DNA of 64,000 bases from Azospirillum brasilense (GTDB taxonomy: Bacteria; Pseudomonadota; Alphaproteobacteria; Rickettsiales; UBA3002). Each line of letters starts with the position of its first letter. Position 1 is the first letter of the stretch. The stretch covers positions 183-64,182 of the forward strand of contig QFOX01000004.1 in assembly GCA_003241645.1 (NCBI GenBank), read 5' to 3'. The translations under genes were made by a program, and so were the position numbers. Shown piece after piece: positions 1 through 58,372 of the stretch. The notes beneath the pieces are model-generated. The model saw only the letters and a program-made list of their open reading frames with translations, made no database searches and was not told the origin of the DNA.

Positions 1-1298
1 GCCACTTCCGGTGCTTCGCCCTGCGCATTCGCGTAGTAACGGCCCATGATGCCCTGAAGCTCAGGGAATTCACCCACCATGCCGGAGGTTAAGTCGGCTT
101 TGCAGAGATGCGCTGCACGACGCACGAAGCGTTTGTCATCCTGAGCAACGCGAAGGATCTCAGCGGATGCTTCGCTACGCTCAGCATGACAAAGCATATC
201 GACCAGCTGGACTGCCAGCTGTTCAATGCGCTGCACTTTCTCGTTCATCATGCCGACCTTGGCGTGGAACACCACGTCGGCCAGTTTTTCGCCCCAGGCT
301 TCCAGCCGGGTGCTCTTGTCCTGCTCCCAGTAGAATGCGCCGTCGCTCAGGCGGGCACGCAGCACGCGGCTGTTCCCGGCGATCACGGCTTTGCCCTCGT
401 CGGCGGTGATCATGTTCGCCACCGCGATGAACTGGTTGGTCAGCGTGCCGCTGGCGTCGCGCAGCGCGAAGTAGCGCTGGTGCACTTTCATTTCCGAAAT
501 CAGCACTTCCGGCGGCAGGCTCAGGAAGCTGGCATCGAACGTGCCGAGCAGCGGCACGGGCCATTCGACGAGGCCGGTCACTTCATCCAGCAGGGCCGGG
601 TCGTTCACCACTTCGAGATTGTGGTGCTTGGCCAGTTGGGTGATCTCGGTGGCGATCCAGTCACGGCGGGTCGCGGCATTCACCACCACATGCGCGGCTT
701 TGAGTTTGTCTTCGTATTCTTCCGCATGGCGCAGGTGGATAGCGCCGGGTGCAAGGAAACGGTGGCCATAGGTGGTGGCCGCCGCCGTCAGGTGGCCGAA
801 TTGCACGGGCACGATGGCGTCATCCAGCAGGCAGGTGATGGCGTGCAGCGGGCGCACCCAGCGCATGGGGCGGGCTTTGCTGTCGCCCCATTGCATGCTT
901 TTCGGCCAGACGAACGCGGTAAGCGCCGCTTCGGCCACTTCTTTGGCCAGCTCGGCCATGGCGCGGCCCTTCTTTTCGATGCGCGCGAAATAGTACCCGT
1001 CGCGCTGCTCGCACTGTTCGGCGGTGAGGCCCACCGCGTTCAGGAAGCCCTGCATGGCCTGCGCGGGCGCACCCACTTTGGGGCCTTTGCGTTCTTCCGA
1101 AATATCGGGCTGCACCAGCGGCAGGCCGAACAGCTGGATGGCCAGATGGCGCGGCGATACGAAGGTCCTGACCTCGCCATGGGCGATGCCTGCTTTTTCA
1201 AATCCGGCGGCAATGAGGCGCTGCAACTGTTCGCACGCGCCGCGCTGCATGCGCGAGGGGATTTCTTCGGAGAAGAGTTCGAGAAGCAGGGTAGCCAT
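1..1298 (-). CDS. glyS: Glycyl-tRNA synthetase beta subunit, N-terminal part (3' end runs off the window start)
   Basis: Not in the ORF track because there is no stop in the window. Reverse translation from the ATG at 1298-1296 reads MATLLLELFSEEIPSRMQRGACEQLQRL..., the canonical GlyS N-terminus. The + ORF 108..1505 is its antisense shadow. Confidence 0.9.
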   Translation of the reverse strand, partial: MATLLLELFSEEIPSRMQRGACEQLQRLIAAGFEKAGIAHGEVRTFVSPRHLAIQLFGLPLVQPDISEERKGPKVGAPAQAMQGFLNAVGLTAEQCEQRDGYYFARIEKKGRAMAELAKEVAEAALTAFVWPKSMQWGDSKARPMRWVRPLHAITCLLDDAIVPVQFGHLTAAATTYGHRFLAPGAIHLRHAEEYEDKLKAAHVVVNAATRRDWIATEITQLAKHHNLEVVNDPALLDEVTGLVEWPVPLLGTFDASFLSLPPEVLISEMKVHQRYFALRDASGTLTNQFIAVANMITADEGKAVIAGNSRVLRARLSDGAFYWEQDKSTRLEAWGEKLADVVFHAKVGMMNEKVQRIEQLAVQLVDMLCHAERSEASAEILRVAQDDKRFVRRAAHLCKADLTSGMVGEFPELQGIMGRYYANAQGEAPEV

Positions 1299-1902: not shown

Positions 1903-2804
1903 TCGCTTGCTCCTTGCTCCACGGTGGGAGCGTCCGTTTTTTTCTTGGCTTTTTTACTGGGCGTGGCCGCCGGTTCGGCCGTTGCGGCGGGCGCGACCAC
2001 GGGCGGGTCCTGCATGTCCGGCGCGACGGCCGCGGGCTCGTTCACGGCGGTGGCGGGGGCTTCCACTTTCGGTGCGCAGTATTGCGCGTCGTTCGCGGCT
2101 TTTGCGTCGCGCGCGATCTGCTCGATCACCTTCCGGTCGGCGCGGATGAGGTTACTCACCGTGCGGCTGGTGGTGTAGCTGAGGATGCTGCCCATGTCGC
2201 GGCCCGTGGTGGGCTTGATGTTCACTTGCTTCGTGGCGTCCTTCGCATCGGCGATGATGAAGGAATCATCCGGCACGGCGCTCATGTCGCCACCGGCTTT
2301 CGCCACGCGGTAGAGGTCGGAGATCTGCAGGTCGGAATAATGTTCGGACAGGAACTTCGCGGTTTCGCGGTTGATGGCGGTGTTGGTCACGCGCTCGCTC
2401 ACCGCGTTGATGATGTCGGTGCGCGTTTGCTTCTCGCCGCAGGCGCTGCCCGCTTCGGGGGCGATCAGCTCGTTCGCTTCCAGCGACACGGCGACGGACG
2501 AACGCGTTAGTTTGGGGTAGGGCGTGAAGAAATGCTCGGCAATGTCGTAGCCCATGGCGAGGCGCTGGTCCTCGGTGAAATACACGTGCTTGGCCACGGT
2601 GGGCGCTTGCGGCGTGACCAGTTTGGCCGCGGCGATGCTGGTCGCTTCTTCCTTCAGCTTGGTCGGCAGGCATTCTTCGTTGCTCAACTGGGCAAGGCCA
2701 CCCGCGAGGCAGTAGGCTGGCTTATACAAAAACTCGCGGCGATCCGCCTCGCCGCAGGCGGCGAGGGTTAAAGTGCTTATTAATAGCCAGATGCGAACTT
2801 TCAT
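1899..2804 (-). CDS. Putative lipoprotein, unknown function
   Basis: The internal ATG at 2804 gives [17 protein letters not shown] (signal peptide plus lipobox). No recognisable domain. C-terminus is [14 protein letters not shown] start/stop overlaps on both sides. Confidence 0.6.
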
Positions 2805-3022
2805 TTTGTACCCTGTGTACTGGTAGCAGGGGTTGATGTCTGACGTTCTGGTAATCCAGGCGCACAATCTTTCACATTGCCACGACCCATAAAGTCAAAT
2901 GGGAAGACCGTAGCACCTAAGCAGGTGCTTTCAGGGTTCCTACGTTCATGTCCAACGTACGGGATGCACGCAGTCAGCATTACGCTTATTACGAAAACGG
3001 ATGTTATGAAGCGGAGTTCCAT
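2801..3022 (-). CDS. Small putative lipoprotein (73 aa), visibly low GC
   Basis: MELRFITSVFVISVMLTAC has a lipobox-like N-terminus. Its ATG directly abuts the glyQ TAG stop (TAGATG). Local GC is clearly below the flanks. Confidence 0.4.
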   Translation of the reverse strand: MELRFITSVFVISVMLTACIPYVGHERRNPESTCLGATVFPFDFMGRGNVKDCAPGLPERQTSTPATSTQGTK

Positions 3023-4021
3023 CTACGCCGCCTCCTGCGTTTGGCTTTGCACCCACGCTTCGCAGCAGGCTTTCGCCATGGCGCGCACGCGGCCGATATA
3101 GGCGGCGCGCTCGGTCACGCCGATAACGCCGCGCGCATCCAGCAGGTTGAAACGGTGCGATGCCTTGATGCACTGGTCGTAGGCGGGCAGGGCGAGGGTC
3201 GCGCTGCGCGCATTGCTGTGCGCCAGCAGGCGTTTGCATTCGGCCTCGGCGGCATTGAACTGCTCGAACAGCTGCGCGGTGTCAGCCGCCTCGAGGTTGT
3301 AGGCGCTGAACTCGACCTCGTTCTGCTTGAACACGTCGCCGTAGGTGAAGTGAGTGGGGAGTGGGGAGTGGGGAGTGGTGGGTGTTGATGCACTGCCTTG
3401 CGTAGCGCCATCGCTGCGCGAGCCGCTGGCGGCGGGGGGGAGCGAAGCGTGGGGGGTAAGGCCCCCCTCAGGTACAAAATTCCACCCCAGGTCGTACACA
3501 TTCTCAACACCCTGAATGTACATGGCGAGGCGCTCAAGCCCATAGGTCAGCTCGCCGGAGATGGGGCTGCATTCGATGCCGCCGACCTGCTGGAAGTAGG
3601 TGAACTGGGTGACTTCCATGCCGTCGCACCAGACTTCCCAGCCAAGGCCCCAGGCGCCCAGCGTGGGGCTTTCCCAGTCGTCTTCCACGAAGCGGATGTC
3701 GTGCTTTTTGGGGTCGATGCCCAGCTCCACCAGCGAATCGAGGTACAGCTGCTGGATGTTGTCGGGCGAGGGTTTCAGGATCACCTGGAACTGGTAGTAA
3801 TGCTGCAGGCGGTTGGGGTTCTCGCCATAGCGGCCATCTTTCGGGCGGCGCGAAGGCTGCACATAGGCGCAGTTCCACGGCTTGGGGCCCAGCGTGCGCA
3901 GGGTGGTGGCCGGGTGGAACGTGCCTGCCCCCACTTCCATGTCATAGGGTTGCAGGATCACACAGCCCTGACGCGCCCAGTAGTTCTGGAGGGTCAGGAT
4001 AATATCTTGGAACGATTTCAT
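3023..4021 (-). CDS. glyQ: Glycyl-tRNA synthetase alpha subunit carrying an in-frame repeat insertion
   Basis: [42 protein letters not shown]... is the canonical GlyQ. An extra ~40 residues lie between VYDLGWN and FTYGDVF. Confidence 0.95.
3352..3379. repeat. Tandem heptamer (gagtggg)x3 plus one imperfect copy inside glyQ
   Basis: Read directly: gagtggg gagtggg gagtggg gagtggt. It encodes part of [12 protein letters not shown] on the minus strand. Confidence 0.9.
3385..3471 (-). repeat. 87-bp GC-rich palindromic repeat, family A, copy in glyQ
   Basis: The reverse complement ctgaggggggccttaccccccacgcttcgctcccccccgccgccagcggctcgcgcagcgatggcgctacgcaaggcagtgcatcaa matches 13154..13239 at 80 of 87 positions without gaps (hand alignment). 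Confidence 0.9.
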
Positions 4022-4129: not shown

Positions 4130-4519
4130 TTACTTGGCATAGGCGCTCCAATAGAGTCCTACCAGCAGTAACCCCAATCCCGTCCAGCGTATGGCCTCCA
4201 GCGTGGTGGCATAGCGAAACAGGTGGGGATAGAGATGCCGGGATCGTTTTTTCACGTCCAGCTCCCGATACAGGTTCGAATGCCGCAGGCTCAGGCGTAC
4301 CTGACGGTAGCTGCTGTCATACATGCTGCCATGCTGACGGACGCGGCGCATGATCCAGTACTCGTTCTTGAGCATCAGGATCAGGAAAGCACCACCCCCT
4401 GCAACCATCGGCAGTGCAAGTGCGATGGCGTTCGGACCTAGAAAATGAAGGATAACAGCATAGAGCACCGTCAGGGTCGCGGCAATGAACATACCGGACC
4501 AAACATGCTTATACGGCAT
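4130..4519 (-). CDS. Hypothetical membrane protein (about 3 TM segments)
   Basis: The ATG at 4519 is preceded by aaggaag. The protein reads MPYKHVWSGMFIAATLTVLYAVILHFLGPNAIALALPMVAGGGAFLILML. GC is lower than the neighbours. Confidence 0.55.
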   Translation of the reverse strand: MPYKHVWSGMFIAATLTVLYAVILHFLGPNAIALALPMVAGGGAFLILMLKNEYWIMRRVRQHGSMYDSSYRQVRLSLRHSNLYRELDVKKRSRHLYPHLFRYATTLEAIRWTGLGLLLVGLYWSAYAK

Positions 4520-10835: not shown

Positions 10836-10984
10836 GTCATCCCGGAACATTTTTCAGGAGAAAAATTTCTCCGGGATCCAGACCTCACGGCGCTCAGCAG
10901 AGCGCCGTCGTCAAAAAAGTCTGCTGACTTTTTTACCGTGGATTCCCCTATGATTTCGCCTGCTGGCGAAATCCGGGGAATGAC
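10836..10984. repeat. 149-bp three-hairpin MITE-like element (family C) between etfB and etfA
   Basis: gtcatcccgg...ccgggatcc hairpin, a central cggcgct/agcgccg hairpin, and gattcccc...ggggaatgac. About 80% identical to 14481..14630. Same architecture as 34136..34283. Confidence 0.85.
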
Positions 10985-11004
10985 AATTGTTGAAGGAGTT
11001 TAAC

Positions 11005-12405: not shown

Positions 12406-14160
12406 ATGAACACCGCCCCGGACCGCCTGAAATTAGCCCTCGCGCAGATGAACCCCACCGTGGGCGACCTTGCGGGCAACGCGCTGGCCATTGTGCGCAC
12501 GGCGCAGGAAGCCGCCGCGCATGGCGCGGATCTGGTGCTGTTCCCCGAAATGGCGCTGACCGGCTACCCGCCGGAGGATCTGATTCTGGTGCCGGCCTTC
12601 CGCCAGGCCGCGTGGGACGCGGCGCGCCAGATCGCGAAGGATACGCAATCGCTGCCGTGCGACCTCATCTTCGGCAATTTGTGGGAAGAGGGCGCGGCGA
12701 TTTACAATGCCTCGGTGCTGGCCAGCGGCGGGCGCTTAAGCCTGCTGCGCGCCAAGCACGCGCTGCCGAATTACGGCGTGTTCGACGAAATGCGCGTGTT
12801 CGCCCCCGGCCCGGAGCCGGAAGTGGTGGAGTGGCGCGGCCTGAAATTGGGCCTGCTGATTTGCGAAGAGGTCTGGCAGCCGGGTGCAGGCGTGGCGCTG
12901 GCGCAGGCGGGCGCCGAACTGCTGCTGGTGCAGAATGCCAGCCCCTACCACATTGGCAAGGCCAGTGAACGCAAAGCCGTGGTGGATGCGGTAGTGAAGG
13001 CGACCGGCCTACCGCTGGTGTACCTGAACCTCGTGGGTGGGCAGGACGAGCTGGTGTTCGATGGCCGCTCCTACGCCGTCGGGGCCGACGGGGCCGATGC
13101 CGCGCGGCTGCCCGCCTTCTGCGAAAGCCTTGCGGTGCTGGAATGGAAGAAAACTGAGGGGGGCCTTGCCCCCCACGCCTCGCTTCCCCCCGCCGCTAGC
13201 GGCTCGCGCAGCGATGGCGCTACGCAAGGGAGCGCATCACGTTGGGTATGTGTTTCTGGCCCTATGGAGCCCGTGCGCGGCGACGAAGAAACGATCTACC
13301 ACGCGCTGGTGTTGGGCCTGCGCGATTACGTGCGCAAGAATGGCTTCCCCGGGGTGGTGCTGGGGCTTTCCGGCGGCATTGATTCGGCGTTGTCGGCCGC
13401 CATCGCGGTGGATGCGCTAGGCGCGGATAAGGTGCTCGGCCTGCGGCTGCCCAGCCCCTACAGCTCGGCCGATAGTCTGGAAGACGCACAGGCGCTGGTG
13501 GAATTGCTGGGCATGCAGACCCATACCGTATCCATTGAGCCGGGCATGCAGGCGGCCAACGCTGCGCTTGCGCCGTTATTCGCCGGTCGCGCCCCCGACA
13601 CGACCGAGGAGAATATCCAAGCCCGCCTGCGCGGCCTGACGCTGATGGCGATGAGCAACAAGTTCGGCCACATGCTGCTGACCACGGGCAATAAGTCTGA
13701 GATGTCGGTGGGCTATGCCACGCTGTATGGCGATATGGCGGGTGGTTTTTCGGTGCTGAAGGACGTGTACAAAACCACCGTGACCCGGCTTTCCAGCTGG
13801 CGCAATGGCTTTGCCGACATCGCGCGGCTGGGGCTGCTGGGGCCTGCGGGCCCGGTCATGCCGGAGCGCAGCATCACCAAGCCGCCAAGTGCCGAGCTGC
13901 GGCCCGGCCAGTTGGATCAGGATTCGTTGCCGCCCTATGCCGTGCTGGATACGGTGCTGCGCGGGTTGATCGAGCGGCAGCTTTCCGTGCATGAGTTGAT
14001 CGCCGAGGGCATGGAGCCCGCCGTGGTGGAAAAGGTCGCCAAGCTGGTGTGGGCGGCGGAATATAAACGCCGCCAAAGCGCGCCGGGCGTGAAGATCACG
14101 CCCATGGCGTTCGGCCGCGACCGCCGTTGGCCCATCACCAACCGCTGGAAATTCCAGTAG
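12406..14160 (+). CDS. nadE: Glutamine-dependent NAD+ synthetase carrying an in-frame repeat insertion
   Basis: N-terminal CN-hydrolase domain (LKLALAQMNPTVGDLAGN). C-terminal PP-loop LGLSGGIDSAL. The insertion [27 protein letters not shown] sits in the inter-domain linker. Confidence 0.95.
   Translation: MNTAPDRLKLALAQMNPTVGDLAGNALAIVRTAQEAAAHGADLVLFPEMALTGYPPEDLILVPAFRQAAWDAARQIAKDTQSLPCDLIFGNLWEEGAAIYNASVLASGGRLSLLRAKHALPNYGVFDEMRVFAPGPEPEVVEWRGLKLGLLICEEVWQPGAGVALAQAGAELLLVQNASPYHIGKASERKAVVDAVVKATGLPLVYLNLVGGQDELVFDGRSYAVGADGADAARLPAFCESLAVLEWKKTEGGLAPHASLPPAASGSRSDGATQGSASRWVCVSGPMEPVRGDEETIYHALVLGLRDYVRKNGFPGVVLGLSGGIDSALSAAIAVDALGADKVLGLRLPSPYSSADSLEDAQALVELLGMQTHTVSIEPGMQAANAALAPLFAGRAPDTTEENIQARLRGLTLMAMSNKFGHMLLTTGNKSEMSVGYATLYGDMAGGFSVLKDVYKTTVTRLSSWRNGFADIARLGLLGPAGPVMPERSITKPPSAELRPGQLDQDSLPPYAVLDTVLRGLIERQLSVHELIAEGMEPAVVEKVAKLVWAAEYKRRQSAPGVKITPMAFGRDRRWPITNRWKFQ
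13154..13239 (+). repeat. GC-rich palindromic repeat, family A, copy in nadE
   Basis: ctgaggggggccttgccccccacgcctcgcttccccccgccgctagcggctcgcgcagcgatggcgctacgcaagggagcgcatca. Same frame and orientation relative to its host gene as the glyQ copy. Confidence 0.9.
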
Positions 14161-14480: not shown

Positions 14481-14630
14481 GTCATCCTCGAAAAATTTTC
14501 AGCAGAAAATTTCTTCGGGGATCCAGACCACACGATGGCCAGTAGGCCATCGTCGTCAAAAAATATCTTCTGACATTTTTTGCGTGGATTCCCCTATGAT
14601 TTTGCCTGCTGGCAAAATCCGGGGAATGAC
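14481..14630. repeat. 150-bp three-hairpin MITE-like element (family C) upstream of gltX
   Basis: gtcatcctcg...cggggatcc, a central cgatggcc/ggccatcg hairpin (compensatory changes versus the etfBA copy), and gattcccc...ggggaatgac. Confidence 0.85.
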
Positions 14631-14659
14631 GATACGGAAGAGGCCTTAGAGGATTTTTT

Positions 14660-16006: not shown

Positions 16007-16011
16007 TGCCC

Positions 16012-16361
16012 GTCATTCCAGCGAAAGCTGGAATCCATGAGGCATGATGCAGCACTCCTACCTGTATATCATGGCAAGCAAGCTGCATGGTACACTCTAC
16101 ATTGGGGTGACCGCCGATTTGGTAAAGCGCGTGTATGAGCATCGTACTGGGATGGTTGCAGGGTTTACCAAGAAATACCACGTGCACATGCTTGTATATT
16201 ATGAGATGCACGAAGATATAACGCAGGCCATCCAGCGCGAAACGCAAATGAAGGCGTGGAAGCGAAGGTGGAAAATTGAACTTATTGAGAAGCAGAATCC
16301 AGCATGGGAAGACCTGTATGCGTCCATTCTCTGATTGGATTCCAGCTTTCGCTGGAATGAC
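16012..16361 (+). mobile_element. Candidate minimal mobile unit: GIY-YIG gene bracketed by perfect 26-bp inverted hairpin repeats
   Basis: 16012-16037 gtcattccagcgaaagctggaatcca and 16336-16361 tggattccagctttcgctggaatgac are exact reverse complements. The unit fills the gltX-cysS gap and its interior is AT-richer. Confidence 0.5.
16044..16334 (+). CDS. GIY-YIG nuclease family protein (YhbQ/UPF0213-like, nuclease domain only)
   Basis: SYLYIMASKLHGTLYIGVTADLVKRVYEHRTG...QRETQMKAWKRRWKIELIE. GIY/YIG, Arg and Glu positions are as in the family. Confidence 0.85.
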   Translation: MMQHSYLYIMASKLHGTLYIGVTADLVKRVYEHRTGMVAGFTKKYHVHMLVYYEMHEDITQAIQRETQMKAWKRRWKIELIEKQNPAWEDLYASIL

Positions 16362-16367
16362 GGTACG

Positions 16368-17750
16368 ATGATCAAACTTTCCAACACCCTGACGCGCGGC
16401 GTGGAGCCGTTTGCCCCACTCGACCCTGCGCATGTAAAAATGTATGTGTGCGGACCGACCGTGTATGCGCGCCCGCATATCGGCAATGCGCGCTCGGTGG
16501 TGGTGTATGACGTGCTGGCGCGGCTGCTGCGCCACGACTTCCCGAAGCTCACCTTCGTGCGCAATATTACGGATGTGGACGATAAAATTAACGCGGCTGC
16601 CATCGAGCGCGGCATCTCCATTCAGGCGCTGACCGACGAGGTGACCGCGCAGTTCCACGCCGATATGGGTGCATTGAATTGCGCCAAGCCGGACGTGGAG
16701 CCCAAAGCCACCGAACACATCGCGCAGATGATCGCGATGATCGAAACGCTCATCGTGCGCGGCCATGCCTATGCAGCGCAGGGCCATGTGCTGTTCGACG
16801 TGCAGAGCAACCCGGATTATGGCGTGCTCAGCCGCCGCAACGCGCGGGACATGATCGCCGGTGCGCGCGTGGAAGTGGCGCCTTACAAAAAATACCCCGG
16901 CGATTTCGTGCTGTGGAAACCCGCCAGCGAGAAAGACGACGCGAGCAGCAAGTTCGACTCGCCATGGGGCGTGGGCCGCCCCGGCTGGCACATCGAATGC
17001 TCTGCCATGAGCGCCACGCATTTGGGCCATGATTTCGACATCCATGGCGGTGGGTCGGACCTGATGTTCCCGCATCATGAGAACGAGATTGCACAAAGCC
17101 GGTGCGCGCATGCGGGCTCGCATTACGCGAAATACTGGGTGCATAACGGCTTTCTTACCGTCAACGGCGAGAAGATGAGCAAGAGCCTCGGCAACTTCAT
17201 CACCGTGCATGATTTGTTGGAGCGCGGCGTGAAGGGCGAGGTGATCCGCTTCGCGCTGCTTTCCACGCGCTACAACGAACCGCTCGATTGGAGCGACAAG
17301 CTGCTCGCCGATGCGGGCAAGGTGATGGATAAGCTCTATCGTAAAACTACCGATGTCATTCCCGCGCAGGCGGGAATCCATGATATAGGCGTGGCAGCGG
17401 AGGCAATCATGGATCCCGGCCTTCGCCGGGATGACGTATCTAAAGAACTTATGGCTGCCTTGCGCGATAACCTGAACACGCCGAAAGCACTGGCCATCCT
17501 GCAAACGCTGGAAGGCGACGAACTGCTGGCTTCAGCCCAGTTCATGGGCCTGCTGCAACAGCCTGCCGACCAATGGTTCCAGGGCGAAGCGGGCGACGAT
17601 GCCGCCGCCATTGAAGCGCAGATCGCCCAACGCAACGCCGCCAAGAAAGCGCGTGACTTCGCCACGGCTGATGCGATCCGCGAGGCGCTGAAGGCGCAGG
17701 GCATCCTGCTCGAAGACGGGCCGCAGGGCACCAGCTGGCGCCGCGCGTAA
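16368..17750 (+). CDS. cysS: Cysteinyl-tRNA synthetase carrying an in-frame repeat insertion
   Basis: MIKLSNTLTRGVEPF..CGPTVYARPHIGNARS (HIGH) and KMSKSLGN. An 81-bp hairpin repeat is translated as VIPAQAGIHDIGVAAEAIMDPGLRRDD. Confidence 0.95.
   Translation: MIKLSNTLTRGVEPFAPLDPAHVKMYVCGPTVYARPHIGNARSVVVYDVLARLLRHDFPKLTFVRNITDVDDKINAAAIERGISIQALTDEVTAQFHADMGALNCAKPDVEPKATEHIAQMIAMIETLIVRGHAYAAQGHVLFDVQSNPDYGVLSRRNARDMIAGARVEVAPYKKYPGDFVLWKPASEKDDASSKFDSPWGVGRPGWHIECSAMSATHLGHDFDIHGGGSDLMFPHHENEIAQSRCAHAGSHYAKYWVHNGFLTVNGEKMSKSLGNFITVHDLLERGVKGEVIRFALLSTRYNEPLDWSDKLLADAGKVMDKLYRKTTDVIPAQAGIHDIGVAAEAIMDPGLRRDDVSKELMAALRDNLNTPKALAILQTLEGDELLASAQFMGLLQQPADQWFQGEAGDDAAAIEAQIAQRNAAKKARDFATADAIREALKAQGILLEDGPQGTSWRRA
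17355..17435 (+). repeat. 81-bp double-hairpin repeat (family D) inside cysS
   Basis: gtcattcccgcgcaggcgggaatccat ... ggatcccggccttcgccgggatgac. Exactly 27 codons. Confidence 0.9.
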
Positions 17751-24590: not shown

Positions 24591-24708
24591 TGGCTGGGCG
24601 CGATCTTCTGCGCATCCATGCTTGACAGTCTGTGGAAAACCGTTAAAAGACCTGCTCCTTGGGCACCGGAGCGCATATTCCCCTCCGCCCTTGAGAGGTG
24701 AGATTTAG

Positions 24709-24790
24709 GGCGAGGCCAGTAGGCCGAGCGAGCCATCAGCCCGCGAAGCGGCGCACCATTGGGAGCGCAGGAGCGCGAGCAGGGTGCAGC
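24709..24790. repeat. Family B-related repeat in the rpsD upstream region
   Basis: The core ggccgagcgagccatcagcccgcgaagcggcgc (24722-24754) matches 42782-42814 inside rnpB. Confidence 0.75.
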
Positions 24791-24881
24791 TAAAACTCGT
24801 TTGGGAATAGTAATCATTGGTGTCGCACCGCAGCGAAGGCTGCCAAGCGGCGCTGATAACGTTGAACTGAAGGAGACTCGC

Positions 24882-25502
24882 ATGAGCAAACGTCATGCCG
24901 TGAAGTACAAAATTTCCCGCCGTATCGGTGAGAACCTCTGGGGCCGCGCCAAGGACCCCGTGAACCGTCGCAGCTACGGCCCCGGCCAGCATGGTGCTGC
25001 CGCAGCCCGCAAAAAACTGTCCGACTACGGCCAGCAGCTGCGCGCCAAGCAAAAACTGAAAGCCTACTACGGCAACCTGACCGAGAAGCAGTTCAGCAAG
25101 CTCTACAAAGAAGCGATCCGCGTGAAAGGCGATACCAGCGAGAACCTGATCGGCCTGCTGGAGCGCCGCCTCGATGCAGTGATCTACCGCATGTGCGTGG
25201 TGCCCACCGTGTTCGCGGCACGCCAGTTCGTGAACCACGGCCACATCAAAGTGAACGGCCGTCGCGTGAACATCCCGAGCTACACCGTGAAAGAAGGTGA
25301 TGTGATCGAGGTGAAGGACAAGTCGAAAGAACTCGCCATCGTGATCGAGTCGATGCAGTCGCCCGAGCGCGAAGTGCCCGAATACATCGAAATGGATGAG
25401 AAGGCCGTAAAAGCGACCTTCAAGCGCATTCCGAAACTGTCGGATGTGCCCTATCCGGTGAAGATGGAACCGAATCTGGTGGTGGAATTCTACAGCCGCT
25501 AA
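24882..25502 (+). CDS. rpsD: 30S ribosomal protein S4
   Basis: [38 protein letters not shown]. Confidence 0.97.
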
Positions 25503-27600: not shown

Positions 27601-29823
27601 ATGACTGCGATCGCCGAAAAAGCTGCTGAAACCACCCCGCACATCACCAAAGAGATCATCGAGGCGCACGGCCTGACGCATGACGAATACGAGCGCGTGG
27701 TGCATATTCTGGGCCGCACGCCGAACCTTGTCGAGCTGGGCATTTTCAGCGTGATGTGGAGCGAGCATTGCAGCTACAAGACCACCCGCAAATGGCTGCG
27801 CAGTTTCCCCACCACCGGCCCGCAGGTGATCTGTGGCCCGGGCGAGAATGCCGGCGTCATCGACATTCAGGACGGGCAGGCGATCATCTTCAAAATGGAA
27901 TCGCACAACCACCCCAGCTTCATCGAGCCGTTCCAAGGGGCGGCCACCGGCGTGGGCGGCATTTTGCGTGACGTATTCACCATGGGCGCGCGCCCCATCG
28001 CGCTGCTGAACGCGCTGCGCTTCGGCGAACCGGCGAACCCGAAAACGCGCCACATCGTTAACGGCGTGGTCGCGGGCATCGCGCATTACGGCAACTGCGT
28101 GGGCGTGCCCACCGTGGGCGGCGAGGCCATTTTCCACGCCAGCTACAATGGCAACCCGCTGGTGAACGCCATGGCGGTGGGCCTGGCCGATATGGACAAG
28201 ATCTTCTATTCCAAAGCTTCGGGCGTGGGCAACGACGTGATCTATTTCGGTGCCAAGACCGGGCGCGACGGCATTCATGGCGCCACCATGGCCAGCGCCG
28301 AGTTCGACGAGAATTCCGAAGAAAAACGCCCCACCGTGCAGGTGGGTGACCCGTTCACCGAAAAGCTGCTCATCGAGGCCTGCCTTGAGCTGATGGCGAC
28401 CGACGCGATCATCTCCATTCAGGATATGGGCGCGGCCGGCCTGACCTGCAGCTCGCTGGAGATGGCGAGCAAAGGCGAGCTCGGCATCGAGATGCAGCTG
28501 GAGAACGTGCCCGTGCGCGAAGAGCGCATGACGCCCTACGAGATCATGCTTTCCGAATCGCAGGAGCGCATGCTGATGGTGGTCAAGCCCGGCCATGAGG
28601 ACGAGGTCTACGCCATTATGAAGAAATGGAACCTTGCCTGCGCCACCATCGGTAAACTCACCGACACGGGCCGCATGGTGCTGAAAATGCAGGGCGAGGT
28701 GGTGTGCGATATTCCCGTCGCCCCGCTTTCCGACGAAGCGCCGGTGTATGACCGGCCCTACACGCTCACCCCGCCGCGCCCCGTGCTTGCCGCGGCCGAT
28801 GTGCCGCCCCCGCGCGACCTTGGGCAGGCGCTGGCGCAGCTCATGGCGTGCCCCGACCTTGCCAGCAAGCGCTGGATCTGGACGCAGTACGACCACATGG
28901 TGATGAACGACACCGTAGCCCGCCCGGGTGGTGACGCCGCCGTGGTGCGCGTGCATGGCACGCAAAAAGCCGTGGCGCTGACCAGCGACTGCACCCCGCG
29001 CTACGTGGAAGCCGACCCGGTGGATGGCGGCAAACAGGCCGTGGCCGAAAGCTGGCGTAACCTCATTGCCACCGGCGCGGAGCCGCTCGCCATTACCGAT
29101 TGCCTGAATTTCGGCAACCCGCAGAAGCCCGAAGTGATGGGCCAGATCGTGGGCGCCATTCAGGGCATGGCGGAAGCCTGCCGCGTGCTTGGCTACCCGG
29201 TCGTGTCGGGCAACGTGTCGCTGTACAATGACACGCACGGCAAATCGGTGCAGCCCACCCCCACCGTGGGTGGCGTTGGCCTGCTGAGCGACTACAGCAA
29301 GCGCGTGGGCAATGCCTTCACCGAGGTGGGGCAGGCCATTCTGGTGCTGGGCGAAACGCATGGCCACCTTGGCAGTTCGCTGTACCTGCGCGAGCAATGC
29401 GCCCGCGAAGACGGCGCGCCGCCGCCGGTCGATCTGGCGAAGGAAAAAGCCCATGGCCGCATGGTGCAATTGTTGATCCAGAAAGGCCTGCTTGCCGCCT
29501 GCCACGACGTGAGCGATGGCGGGCTGCTGGTGGCCGTGGCGGAGATGTGCCTGCCCAAACGCATTGGTGCACAATTGCGCTTCCCGGCGCATATCCTGCC
29601 GCACGCCTATGCGTTCGGTGAGGATCAGGCGCGCTACGTGCTGGCGGTGGATGCACAGCACAAAGACGAGGTGCTGGTGATGCTGAATCAGGCAGGCCTG
29701 CCGTTCGATGATCTGGGCCACACCATTGCCGACCTGCTCATCGTGGAAGACAAAGCGCGCATGCCGGTGGAACACCTGCACGACGTGAACGAAACCTGGC
29801 TGCCCGGCTACATGGCCGCATAG
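27601..29823 (+). CDS. purL: Phosphoribosylformylglycinamidine synthase subunit PurL
   Basis: [33 protein letters not shown]...SEHCSYKTT...ESHNHPS. 740 aa. Confidence 0.97.
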
Positions 29824-40000: not shown

Positions 40001-40098
40001 GGGAAGGGGGCGTGCCGCCGCCCTTCGCACCTTCGGTGCTGACCCCCTCGTTTCGCTGCGCTCACGGCTCGCGCAGCTTCGGCGCTACGCAAGGGTTC
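40001..40098 (+). repeat. Family A variant repeat (intergenic)
   Basis: gggaagggggcgtgccgccgcccttcgc...ccccctcgtttcgc...ggctcgcgcagcttcggcgctacgcaaggg. Aligns with 58276..58372 and with the 3' half of the glyQ and nadE copies. Confidence 0.8.
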
Positions 40099-42387: not shown

Positions 42388-42592
42388 GGCGGGGCCTTCT
42401 AACGGTAATCTGCCTTAGAAGTGTGAATATTGCGTTACAATCGCCGCACGGGGCGCTAGATTACCCTGACCAGATGGCCGGATGGCTGCGGGGAATGCTA
42501 TGTGTTGCTGAGGAGCGAAGAGCTCCAACGCAAGAAAAACGGGTTTTGTTTTTGTGCATGGACGGCCAGCAGGCCGGCCCTGCCAAGAGCAC

Positions 42593-42638
42593 GCGAAAGC
42601 GGCGCGAAGCATCGCACAGTATGTGCGATCTGCGGAGC
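42593..42638 (+). repeat. Family B hairpin repeat inside rnpB helix P3
   Basis: gcgaaagcggcgcgaagcatcgcacagtatgtgcgatctgcggagc. The stem is atcgcac/gtgcgat. Confidence 0.85.
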
Positions 42639-42765
42639 AAAAAAATCCAACATCTCCCCGAGGAAAGTCCGGGCTCCACGGAACACGGTGGCGGGTAACG
42701 CCCGCCCGGCGCAAGCCGAGAGACAGTGCCACAGAAACAAACCGCCTTTTTCGCGCGGTACTGGC

Positions 42766-42848
42766 GGCAGCGAGGGCAGCAGCCCGAGCGAGCCATCAGC
42801 CCGCGAAGCGGCGCGAAGCATCGCACAGCATGTGCGATTTGCGGAGCA
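42766..42848 (+). repeat. Family B repeat (long form) inside rnpB helix P12
   Basis: ...gcccgagcgagccatcagcccgcgaagcggcgcgaagcatcgcacagcatgtgcgatttgcggagc. The 3' part matches 42593..42638 and the 5' part matches 24722..24754. Confidence 0.85.
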
Positions 42849-43124
42849 CCAATAAGGTAAGGGTGAAAAGGTGGGGTAAGAGCCCACCGCGCCGCTGGTA
42901 ACAGCGTGTGGCCAGGCAAACCTCACCGGGAGCAAGACCAAATAGGCGTGCAGTGGTTCAATCCACGGGCCGTTCCGGGCCGCACGCGGGTAGGTTGCTT
43001 GAGCCATGCAGCAATGCATGGCCTAGATGAATAGCCATCCATCCCAGCAATGGGGGGACAGAACCCGGCTTACAGGCCATCTGGTGTTAACGCTTTGTTC
43101 ATGCGTGGCTGCTAACCTCGGCCT

Positions 43125-44075
43125 ATGAGCAGTGCCGAACAGACCCAGCGCATGAACGCCGTGCAACGCCAGATCAGCGAGCAGATGGGCCCGTGGCTGG
43201 ATTACCTCGCCACGCATGGCATCGACCGCTCTTATCCGGTCAGCCCCATTAACGAAGCGACGCGCGTCAGCTCTGGCTTCGGCCGCCGCAACGTGCGCGG
43301 CCATGGCGACGGCATGCCGCCGCCGACCCGCAAGCACGAAGCCATCGACATGGTGCCCGCCAGCGGCCGCACCGAGGATGTGGACGTGGTGGCCGTGGTA
43401 TCGGGCCGCGTATTGTATGTGGGCACGCCGGATGCGGCGTCGGGCTTCAGCATCGTCATCGGGGGCGATAACGGCAAAATTTATTCCTACGCGCACCTGG
43501 AAAATGGCAGCGCCGATGTGCGCGTGGGCCAGCGCGTGGGCCGCATGCAGCCCATTGCCACCATGGGCGATACGGGCACGGTCACCTCGGCCTGCGTGCA
43601 TGTGGTGGAGCGGCAGATCCCCTTTGATTATGCCGAAGGGAAACCGGGCGATTTCGACAAATGGTCGTGGCGCAACCGCAGCGGCACGCTGGGCGACCGC
43701 ATTGCGCCCGGTGCCGTGCGCGAAGCACTCACCGATTTCCGCCGCGACCATGACGGGCGCACCGTGAACTTCCTGGATTTCGAACGGGTGCCGCCGCGCC
43801 TGCGCTGGGAAGAGGACCCCAAGAAACACACGATCATTCCGGCCAACACCGAGCGTGACCGCGACCCGCACGCCCATGAAATGCGCCGCCGCGCGCAGGC
43901 GGCACGCCCGGCCACCCCGGCCCCCGCGAAGGCCGAGCCCGAGCAAAGCTGGGGCTCGCAGGCGCTGGAAACGCTCAACGGTGCCCTCTGCACGGTCAGC
44001 TTCGGCTGGGTCGGCAGTTGCGAGGCCCCGGCTGCCCCGGCACCCGCCCGGCCAAACCCCCCGCGCCAGCGCTAG
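43125..44075 (+). CDS. M23/LytM-like peptidase-domain protein without a signal peptide, Pro/Ala-rich C-terminus
   Basis: VSSGFGRR...HEAIDM (HxxxD)...VSGRVLYVG...YSYAHLENGSADVRVGQRVGRMQPIATMGDTG. The HxH motif reads CVH. Confidence 0.65.
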   Translation: MSSAEQTQRMNAVQRQISEQMGPWLDYLATHGIDRSYPVSPINEATRVSSGFGRRNVRGHGDGMPPPTRKHEAIDMVPASGRTEDVDVVAVVSGRVLYVGTPDAASGFSIVIGGDNGKIYSYAHLENGSADVRVGQRVGRMQPIATMGDTGTVTSACVHVVERQIPFDYAEGKPGDFDKWSWRNRSGTLGDRIAPGAVREALTDFRRDHDGRTVNFLDFERVPPRLRWEEDPKKHTIIPANTERDRDPHAHEMRRRAQAARPATPAPAKAEPEQSWGSQALETLNGALCTVSFGWVGSCEAPAAPAPARPNPPRQR

Positions 44076-44157
44076 AACCCATCATTTTCCTGCATTGATG
44101 TGACCGGAAGGCGACAGCCATCGGCCTTTTTTCGGTGCATTCCACAGGGTTGGCGAT

Positions 44158-44240
44158 TTGCCCAAAATCCCCCTTGACCGCCCCAAAATTTGCCCGTACT
44201 TTCCCAAGTGTTCCCAAGAAATTCCAAAAACGCCCAAATG
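44158..44240. promoter_or_regulatory. Eight approximately 10-bp-phased CCCAA (TTGGG on the minus strand) repeats; putative MraZ operator array / Pmra region
   Basis: CCC-led units start at 44161, 44171, 44182, 44193, 44203, 44213, 44223 and 44233. A TTGACC-N17-TACTTT promoter-like pair is embedded at 44174-44202. Confidence 0.45.
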
Positions 44241-44429
44241 GCTGTTTTTCGGGGCTTCCGCACAGAAGAACTGAAGAATTTTAATAAGCCTTTGAGTCGT
44301 AATAAATAAAAAACCTTGGGAAAGCAGACGTTCAGTTAATTTTGACTGGGCATCTGGTGGAAACGTCACATGGTCTGGGTTGCCTTTCACGGGGTGATTT
44401 GGGCTTAACCAAGGGTGAGGACGCGTGCC

Positions 44430-44897
44430 ATGGCACTGTTCCTGTCGACATTTGAAAAGCAGATCGACAAGAAGGGTCGGGTTTCCGTGCCCCCGTCGTT
44501 CCGTGCTGTCCTCGCCGCGCAGAATTTTAATGGCATGGTCGCCTACCAGTCGTTCGTGCATCCCTGCATCGAGGCCTGCGGCATGGAGCGTCTGGAAAAG
44601 CTCTATGCACGCATCGAAACGCTGGACCCGTTCTCGGAAGAGCATGATGCCTTCACCACCGCCATTCTGGCCGGTTCGGTGCAGCTGGCGTTCGACGGTG
44701 AGGGGCGCGTGGTGATTCCTGAGGCGCTGCTGAACGCCGCGGGCATTACGGGCAACGGCGTGTTCGTGGGCAAAGGTGCCACGTTCGAGATCTGGGCGCC
44801 GGAAGCCTTCGCCAAACATCAGGCCGCTGCGCGCGAGCTGGCGCTGAAAAAGCGCCTGAGCCTGAAAGCAGAATTGCCAACCGGGGGTGCCGCATGA
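44430..44897 (+). CDS. mraZ: Transcriptional regulator MraZ
   Basis: MALFLSTFEKQIDKKGRVSVPPSFRAVL... and a second SpoVT/AbrB-like half, DGEGRVVIPEALL. Confidence 0.9.
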   Translation: MALFLSTFEKQIDKKGRVSVPPSFRAVLAAQNFNGMVAYQSFVHPCIEACGMERLEKLYARIETLDPFSEEHDAFTTAILAGSVQLAFDGEGRVVIPEALLNAAGITGNGVFVGKGATFEIWAPEAFAKHQAAARELALKKRLSLKAELPTGGAA

Positions 44898-45859
44898 GCG
44901 ATGCGCGCCACATTCCGGTCATGAAGCATGAGATGGTCGCCGCCGTTGCCCCCAAGGCCGGCGAAGTGATCGTGGATGGAACATTCGGTGCCGGCGGCTA
45001 CAGCCGTGCACTGCTGCAGGAAGCCGCCTGCACGGTGATCGCGTTCGACCGCGACCCGCACGTCAAGTTACTTGCCGATGCGCTCGCCCGGGATTTTCCC
45101 GGGCATTTTTTATTCTTTGCGTCGCGCTTCGGTGCGATGCTCGAGGTGCTCCAGCAGGCTGGGGTTGATGCCGTGGATGCGGTGGTGCTGGATATTGGTG
45201 TGTCGAGCATGCAGATCGACGACGCGGAGCGCGGCTTCAGCTTCGCCAAAGAGGCGGCGCTCGACATGCGCATGAGCCAGCAGGGCGTGAGCGCGGCGGA
45301 TGTGGTGAATACCTACCCCGAGGCCGAGCTGGTGCGCATCCTGCGCGACTATGGCGAAGAGCGCGACGCGCGCCGCATCGCCCGCAGCATCGTGAATAAC
45401 CGCGTGCTGGAGCCCATTGCCACCACCAAACAACTGGCAGAGCTGGTGAAGGGTGCAGTGCGTGGCGCGGCAAAAATGAAGATCCACCCCGCCACGCGCA
45501 CCTTCCAGGCGCTGCGCATCGAAGTGAATCAGGAGCTGGCAGAGCTTGAGGCGGCGCTGGTCGCGGCCGAGCGCCTGCTGAAGCCCGGCGGCCGGCTGGT
45601 GGTGATCTCGTTCCACTCGCTGGAAGACCGCATCGTAAAGCAATTCATGGTGTCGCGCAGCGCGCATGCCACCAAAATTTCCCGCCACGACCCGGCAGCC
45701 CTGCTGCCGAACGCCACGTCGCCCACCGCGATCTTCGAACTGACCCCCAACCGTGCCATCGCCCCGACTGAACAAGAGGTGAGCATGAATCCCCGCGCCC
45801 GCTCGGCAAAGCTGCGCTGTGCAACCCGCACCGCGATCCCGCTTTCACATGCCGCGTAA
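44894..45859 (+). CDS. rsmH: 16S rRNA m4C1402 methyltransferase
   Basis: HIPVMKHEMV...VDGTFGAGGYSRALL...DIGVSSMQID...RGFSF...HPATRTFQALRIEVN. Confidence 0.95.
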   Translation: MSDARHIPVMKHEMVAAVAPKAGEVIVDGTFGAGGYSRALLQEAACTVIAFDRDPHVKLLADALARDFPGHFLFFASRFGAMLEVLQQAGVDAVDAVVLDIGVSSMQIDDAERGFSFAKEAALDMRMSQQGVSAADVVNTYPEAELVRILRDYGEERDARRIARSIVNNRVLEPIATTKQLAELVKGAVRGAAKMKIHPATRTFQALRIEVNQELAELEAALVAAERLLKPGGRLVVISFHSLEDRIVKQFMVSRSAHATKISRHDPAALLPNATSPTAIFELTPNRAIAPTEQEVSMNPRARSAKLRCATRTAIPLSHAA

Positions 45860-58275: not shown

Positions 58276-58372
58276 TGAAGGGGGCGTGCCGCCGCCCTTC
58301 GCTCGCGAAGGCTCGCTGACCCCCTCGCTTCGCGGCTCGCGCAGCGATGGCGCTACGCAGGCAATGCATCAA
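58276..58372 (+). repeat. Family A variant repeat in the murB-ddl gap
   Basis: tgaagggggcgtgccgccgcccttcgc...ccccctcgcttcgcggctcgcgcagcgatggcgctacgcaggcaatgcatcaa. The 3' 50 nt are near-identical to the glyQ and nadE copies. Confidence 0.85.

Follow-up and report, generated by a model that had tools for sequence, protein, structure and literature searches.

STRR repeats lie within P12 of the RNase P RNA of heterocyst-forming cyanobacteria (Vioque 1997, Nucleic Acids Res 25:3471, as cited in PMC2858038). The repeat described here is likewise a genome-wide repeat inside rnpB, lodged in the length-variable P12, but where the STRRs are tandem heptamers it measures ~85 nt, is structured, contains an invariant core and forms no tandem array; it also has a second copy in P3, adds ~200 nt in total and belongs to an alphaproteobacterial host. 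STRR-bearing RNase P reportedly still works. A second comparison is with the Rickettsia palindromic elements (RPEs), of which R. bellii has 526, including 53 within protein genes and one within that of tmRNA (PMC1458961). Both are dispersed hairpin repeats found between genes, in frame within proteins and in a structural RNA gene, the proteins here being ArgC, HemF and HemB and the RNA gene being rnpB, with two copies, rather than that of tmRNA. The element behaves like the RPEs, a likeness of behaviour and not of membership in their family, as it is set apart by composition, being GC-rich with a 24-nt invariant core, and by host, its carriers being aquatic MAGs with biosynthetic genes.

Pneumococcal BOX, enterobacterial BIME/REP and rhizobial RIME are modular intergenic repeats that are essentially extragenic. 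They share with the present element the mosaic of short hairpin modules, the location mostly beside gene ends and the preference for convergent over divergent genes, but the present element also enters coding and RNA genes. The intervening sequences of 23S rRNA, which are excised by RNase III at long stems, are similarly extra stem-loops in peripheral helices of an essential RNA and vary among close relatives, whereas the stems of the rnpB inserts are short. In the literature we found no description of this element or of a repeat-expanded alphaproteobacterial rnpB, and the family appears to be undescribed. In effect nature has run an insertion experiment on an essential ribozyme. Cores that are nearly identical occur with zero, one or two added domains of ~100 nt and supply matched constructs for establishing which sites on RNase P accept peripheral RNA, and in what amount. 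It further places RPE-style gene invasion, of proteins, leaders and structural RNA, outside Rickettsia, in uncultured aquatic alphaproteobacteria.

An rnpB gene of unusual length with an intact core

A scan of the window (the whole 64-kb stretch of DNA that was analysed) with Rfam gave RF00010, bacterial type A RNase P RNA, as the sole family at gathering threshold, at 42616-43088 on the forward strand with 259.8 bits against a gathering score of 100 (model positions 1-367). The 5' end of this match is wrong, the true start of rnpB being 42469, where a perfect 11-bp inverted repeat forms P1 and is followed by a perfect 8-bp P2 and a perfect 6-bp P3a, cgggga (42489-94) with tccccg (42655-60) (Table 1). 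The same P1/P2 5' sequence opens rnpB in the 15 relatives considered below, in which the closing segments of P1, P2 and P3 are also present; these were placed manually, as the Rfam model misplaces them. A first-pass annotation of the window had proposed an RNase P RNA of ~616 nt at 42470-43085, which the RF00010 match and the P1 inverted repeat bear out; the P3 stem that it placed at 42492-42660 is real, with a small offset in its start, which is 42489. Most RNase P RNAs are quoted at 250-550 nt (PMC2996960), a range that the window gene exceeds.

The type A core segments and the P1, P2 and P4 pairing, also claimed at first pass, are all in place. Both P4 strands, J11/12-J12/13, L15, J18/2 and the type A helices match the consensus in the RF00010 alignment, and 97 of 100 base pairs are standard (model pairs downstream of P3 together with manual pairs). 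Without its inserts the core measures 415 nt. An unconstrained fold of the whole RNA was uninformative. The setting of the gene is shared with relatives, in which the order amidase, rnpB, M23 peptidase, mraZ, rsmH, ftsI, murE is also found. Upstream of the gene, cttaga and tacaat separated by 16 nt (42414-42441) are conserved in relative L001 and constitute a candidate rnpB promoter ~20-30 nt before P1; a simple scan called no promoter- or terminator-like sites, this stretch included.

Table 1. Coordinates and properties of rnpB features and element copies in the window and in related loci
Feature	Sequence	Coordinates	Strand	Evidence or remarks
rnpB, bacterial type A RNase P RNA	window	42469..43085	+	about 616 nt; RF00010 259.8 bits; ends from P1 inverted repeat (42469-42479 / 43075-43085)
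5' strands of P1 (42469-79) and P2 (42480-87)	window	42469..42487	+	complementarity to 43075-85 and 43033-40
Native P3	window	42489..42536	+	P3a 5' strand 42489-94; P3b 42505-08 / 42530-33; P3c hairpin 42512-16 / 42522-26; aligns with P3 of compact relatives
P3 insert	window	42537..42647	+	111 nt; in the P3 internal loop, 3' side; missing in the six compact relatives (MAFFT, 16 rnpB genes)
Element copy 1 (P3)	window	42562..42643	+	diverged, full length; nhmmer E 8.4e-6, model positions 8-89; hairpin 1 ~42561-79, core-like GCCAAGAGCACGCGAAAGCGGCGC 42582-605, hairpin 3 42606-39
P11/P12 arm	window	42742..42862	+	base stem CCGCCUUUUUC (42742-52) paired with 42850-62; tip 42753-42849 is insert
Element copy 2 (P12)	window	42770..42852	+	nhmmer E 1.4e-14, model positions 6-89; exact core-pattern match; hairpin 1 42770-90, invariant core 42791-814, hairpin 3 42815-48, tail CCAATAA
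43-nt direct repeat	window	42597..42639 and 42806..42848	+	95% identity, spacing 209 nt
Third element copy, other hairpin 3 type	window	24708..24793	+	~90 nt upstream of rpsD start codon (24882); nhmmer E 2.4e-16
M23 peptidase, mraZ, rsmH, downstream of rnpB	window	43125..45859	+	Pfam PF01551; order shared with relatives
In-frame copy, ArgC	L081	~3916-4005		
In-frame copy, ArgC	L054	~2355-2444		
In-frame copy, HemF	L036	~4243-4332		
In-frame copy, HemF	L066	~179-268		
In-frame copy, HemB	L020	~2982-3071		
In-frame copy, solute-binding protein	L022	~2377-2466		
rnpB with copies in P3 and P12	L112			612 nt; core 95% identical to window
rnpB with truncated P3 copy plus P12 copy	L001			567 nt; core 91%
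rnpB with P3 copy only	L104			503 nt; core 92%
rnpB with P3 copy only	L070			519 nt; core 79%

Two element copies in P3 and P12

The extra length resides in two segments. That of P3, folded alone, reaches -73.4 kcal/mol (z -4.5). When its 111 nt are removed in silico the window P3 folds, in single-sequence folds, in three tiers like a compact P3, indicating that the insert arises in the internal loop that separates P3b from P3a on the 3' side, not at the P3 tip. The P12 insert of about 88-97 nt (42753-42849, within which 42758-42845 are the 88 nt lacking in compact genes) rises from a base stem aligned by Rfam as GCCUUUUU / AAUAAGGU, with 93 unmodelled nt in the P12 apical loop. Insertion here was not clean: the 10-nt tip of the native helix is missing, having been replaced and not just lengthened. 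Alignment of filled and empty rnpB sites shows no target duplication. The claim that repeats had settled in two peripheral helices is upheld by the empty sites and by the repeat family to which the inserts belong, and needs amending in that the P3 insert occupies an internal loop and part of the P12 tip was replaced. Scanning with the class A model, proposed with that claim, puts the extra P12 sequence in the P12 loop, and the core pairs are intact.

The inserts have in common a 43-nt direct repeat, in which the sole variable positions are those in cacag(t/c)atg and gat(c/t)tg, the P3 copy having in addition one extra a in gcgaaagcgg. A degenerate 35-mer of this repeat has 2 exact matches against 0.00 expected from shuffles, and Tandem Repeats Finder returned 0 rows at 42400-43150. 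This is the hairpin repeat that the first-pass annotation had seen in both helices, with small errors in the consensus as written, but it is only a part of the inserted unit. An nhmmer profile built from 85 copies found in other genomes, with neither window nor rnpB copies included, finds exactly three full-length copies in the window, two of them in rnpB. As this outside-trained profile recovers both at full length, each rnpB insert is a whole three-module element that extends beyond the shared 43 nt. The near-identity of hairpin 3 in P3 and P12 was considered as proof of intragenic copying and rejected, as the same variant occurs in L079 and L024.

The placement of the copies is not what uniform scattering would give: two of the three in the window fall within 616 nt (~3e-4 for uniform placement, by our own calculation), and all eight rnpB copies, in the window and four relatives, are in sense orientation. 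Given this clustering, tolerance alone is no explanation and targeting, intragenic copying or function may be involved; clustering and sense-only orientation together could result from a preference for DNA that is structured or highly transcribed, from intragenic copying, from selection on orientation, or from function.

A dispersed family of modular hairpin repeats

Aligned copies show an element of about 80-90 nt built of three modules, a variable hairpin, the invariant 24-nt core AGCCATSAGCCCGCGAAGCGGCGC and a second variable hairpin, followed by an A-rich tail. The first hairpin typically takes the form GCGAG-stem-CAGNAG loop-stem-CGAGC, with stems that vary among copies, the core forms CCGC-GAA-GCGG, and the second hairpin is of at least two types. 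Exact matches to the core were found in 91 stretches from about 30 MAG species, one MAG alone contributing up to ~17, though this invariance across species follows from how the copies were selected. The host MAGs bear the labels Rickettsiales bacterium, uncultured Azospirillum sp. or Alphaproteobacteria bacterium; to go by the record names, lakes are the source of many. In the fetched loci the profile gave 111 matches.

The hairpins pair more than chance allows and covary. Using a hand-written structure and pair counts, 76.5% of hairpin cells are paired, compared with 61.8 ± 0.7% in shuffles (0/500) and 32-41% in slid controls, and double-change cells number 319 against 119; the fold energies of the hairpins are about twice those of shuffled sequences. 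The base 5' of AGCCAT is always complementary to the S base 3' of it (55 C..G, 37 G..C, 0 exceptions), a covariation that represents either a closing pair around the six-base loop or the mark of two subfamilies. Plain MAFFT alignments of the element and of P3 yielded next to no consensus with RNAalifold, since hairpin registers shift between sequences, and the hand-written structure and single-sequence folds were therefore used instead.

The third window copy lies in front of rpsD, the identity of which is confirmed by S4 domains (Pfam). The P12 side of rnpB (42770-42814) matches 24710-24754 with 93% identity over 45 nt (blastn E 1e-13); the link between the P12 copy and rpsD drawn at first pass is thus real, and longer than the 24722-24754 then claimed. 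Some copies, among them the rpsD copy with TTTAG...CTAAA around it, have short complementary ends. A weak profile match at 29386-29421 is inside coding sequence and was dismissed as chance. No Rfam family matched the element at 24650-24890 better than E 2, the E-value search there giving noise. The core was not found in viral contigs, the P12 copy had no match in plasmids, and none of the element copies in the fetched loci overlaps with a tRNA or tmRNA gene. In L016 an element (~1232-1321, +) is 34 nt from a 6S RNA gene (1354-1515, -), outside the gene.

Most copies adjoin gene ends. They point either way with respect to the adjacent genes (18 sense, 20 antisense) and are commoner between convergent than between divergent genes, as judged by crude ORF calling; mixed orientation and convergent bias together fit a DNA-level element. 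The element probably moves by transposition, or else copies recombine with one another via the core that they share. In related MAGs it is read through in frame within ArgC, HemF, HemB and a solute-binding protein (Table 1), adding ~27 residues, with core translations that include, by frame, AMSPRSGA, EPSAREAA and SHEPAKRR. In ArgC and in HemF it occupies the same site in two species each. The window itself has no copy of the rnpB element family inside a protein gene. The first-pass description of the rnpB inserts as the RNA counterpart of in-frame protein insertions holds for this family, with ArgC, HemF and HemB of related MAGs as the proteins.

The window contains three or more further families of short repeats that include hairpin motifs (10836-10987 and 14481-14633; 1309-1338, 16011-16040 and 17354-17383; 13168-13230, 40059-40095 and 58301-58363). 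One such family is a ~150-nt unit, 77-88% identical between copies, in which a hairpin of the GGCCAGTAGGCC type resembles hairpin 1 of the rnpB element. The source genome looks rich in modular hairpin repeats.

Empty and filled sites among relatives

Fifteen further rnpB genes from independent metagenome assemblies were located via RsmH homologues and a clade-specific P1/P2 pattern, and aligned with that of the window to give a 16-gene alignment (MAFFT). Six of them (L004, L005, L007, L009, L111 and L113) are compact, 391-416 nt long with 83-86% core identity to the window, and lack exactly 42537-42647 and 42758-42845; elsewhere they differ from the window gene by scattered small gaps only. 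Their P12 tip is just 10-12 nt, their P3 is a three-tier hairpin fold, and they score 299-332 bits with RF00010 against 259.8 for the window. Comparison with the rnpB of relatives, recommended at first pass, has in this way provided empty sites for both segments in the same genes.

Four relatives carry the element (Table 1). Their assemblies are of separate origin: L112 and L104 are from JGI, L001 is from TARA/ENA and L070 is another MAG. Standard pairs fill 93.0% of pair cells in the insert-bearing genes, compared with 92.2% in the compact ones, and 12 pairs show compensatory changes among the insert-bearing genes, for example CG/GC at 42893-42906, in which the window and L104 differ from L112 and L001. 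Together the five insert-bearing orthologues span lineages 79-96% identical in the core. As L070 is more distant from the window than the compact relatives are, its P3 copy reflects either a separate insertion event at this site or one ancient insertion with repeated loss. The eight rnpB copies may stem from as few as three events.

The two copies have fared differently between near relatives. Comparing the window with L112, the P3 element is 93-94% identical and the core 95%, against 65% for the adjacent linker; conservation of the P3 element at the level of the core hints at constraint or at conversion between copies. The P12 element is 65% identical, as both hairpin modules have been exchanged while the flank and the core stayed, and the core common to both would offer a ready patch for conversion among copies. 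The rnpB of L001 has the look of a mosaic: in core and P3 it is nearest to L104 (96%), the P12 of which is compact, but its P12 insert is nearly identical to that of L112, suggesting either recombination or that L104 has lost its P12 copy.

P12 inserts of another kind, unrelated to the element and without a match to its profile, are present in L008 (2335-2428) and L105 (~865-955). One of these is a CTAG-rich inverted repeat with 17-nt arms that are 88% complementary, the other a segment of ~60 nt with GGCGAAG repeats. They identify P12 as a recurrent landing site. The P3 and P12 sites do tolerate extra RNA, as is evident from these unrelated P12 inserts and from the compact-like fold of the window P3 once its insert is removed.

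Fate and role of the inserts

These findings are probably best explained by a working rnpB of an uncultured alphaproteobacterium in which two dispersed hairpin repeats of ~80-90 nt are kept as peripheral passenger arms. Two copies of the element would have entered the gene by DNA-level insertion or recombination. One branches from the 3'-side internal loop of P3 and the other replaces the P12 tip; both sites are peripheral and leave the P4 catalytic core, the surfaces that bind tRNA and the base of P3 untouched. Presumably co-transcribed with rnpB, each copy would most likely fold alone into short hairpins and stay in the mature RNA, and the enzyme would act as a normal type A RNase P with ~200 extra nt. 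What the sequences establish is the inserts themselves, their family and positions, the empty sites and the intact core pairing; retention in the mature RNA, near-neutrality and the mode of movement are inferences.

It is rather doubtful that the inserts are instead transcribed and then cut out, so that the RNase P RNA would consist of two or three segments joined through base pairing. Both lie where a break would be tolerated, and there are precedents, in that intervening sequences are cut from rRNA with no religation, the tmRNA of alphaproteobacteria occurs naturally as two pieces and RNase P RNAs that are split in peripheral loops function in vitro. The inserted hairpins, however, are only 4-9 bp long with mismatches, not the ~20-bp duplexes that RNase III prefers, and Rfam matched no intron or other processing family in the window or in the element. 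Because the stems are short we judge excision less likely than retention.

We also think it unlikely that the elements have been put to use, as arms that bind protein, stabilise the ribozyme or tie RNase P to mRNA leaders bearing the same element. Such a role would accord with the covariation of the hairpins across copies, including the perfect covariation of the bases flanking AGCCAT, with a 24-nt core that is invariant across species (though by copy selection), with the enrichment of copies in rnpB and their sense orientation in eight of eight cases, and with a P3 element as conserved as the core. Against it, close relatives exist without any insert, L104 has no P12 copy and the P3 copy of L001 is truncated, and the P12 hairpin modules have been swapped between near relatives, leaving 65% identity. 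Orientation elsewhere is mixed, as fits a DNA-level element, and the eight copies may trace to no more than three events. A more specific proposal, quite improbable in our estimation, is that the element is a structured RNA module with its own partner, the P3 and P12 copies being extra protein- or RNA-binding arms of RNase P. If true, bacteria would have a counterpart of the P3 arm that is bound by protein in eukaryotic RNase P and MRP, and RNase P could be linked to many mRNAs that have the same module in their leaders.

The recurrence of the architecture in independent assemblies together with the kept core pairs indicates that the gene is neither a pseudogene nor an assembly artefact; both readings are unlikely. 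That it is a decaying pseudogene disrupted by repeats, with a compact functional rnpB elsewhere in the genome, is very improbable. The genome is sampled here over 64 kb only, and the RF00010 score is below that of the compact relatives, but the conserved core segments match the consensus with nearly all pairs standard, compensatory changes have accumulated among the insert-bearing genes, the locus is the conserved syntenic one and five insert-bearing orthologues persist. The RF00010 scan found no second rnpB within the 64-kb window, where a compact copy was the alternative raised at first pass, and the lower score is due to insert penalties and the misplaced 5' end. Least credible of all is collapse or misjoining of repeats in a metagenome bin, for although the window is a MAG contig and repeats can mislead assemblers, the architecture recurs in the independent assemblies of L112, L001, L104 and L070 and the repeats are far shorter than a read pair.

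Annotation of insert-bearing genes

The Rfam RNase P model loses ~145 nt of the 5' end in every gene with a P3 insert (window, L001, L112, L104 and L070), the misplaced end forcing P1-P3 onto insert sequence. The practical upshot is that the standard model clips such rnpB genes and that gene callers put spurious antisense ORFs there. A public gene call in L001 places a hypothetical protein antisense over rnpB (2544-3041), and similar spurious ORFs extend across the window rnpB at 42461-42919 and 42498-43019.
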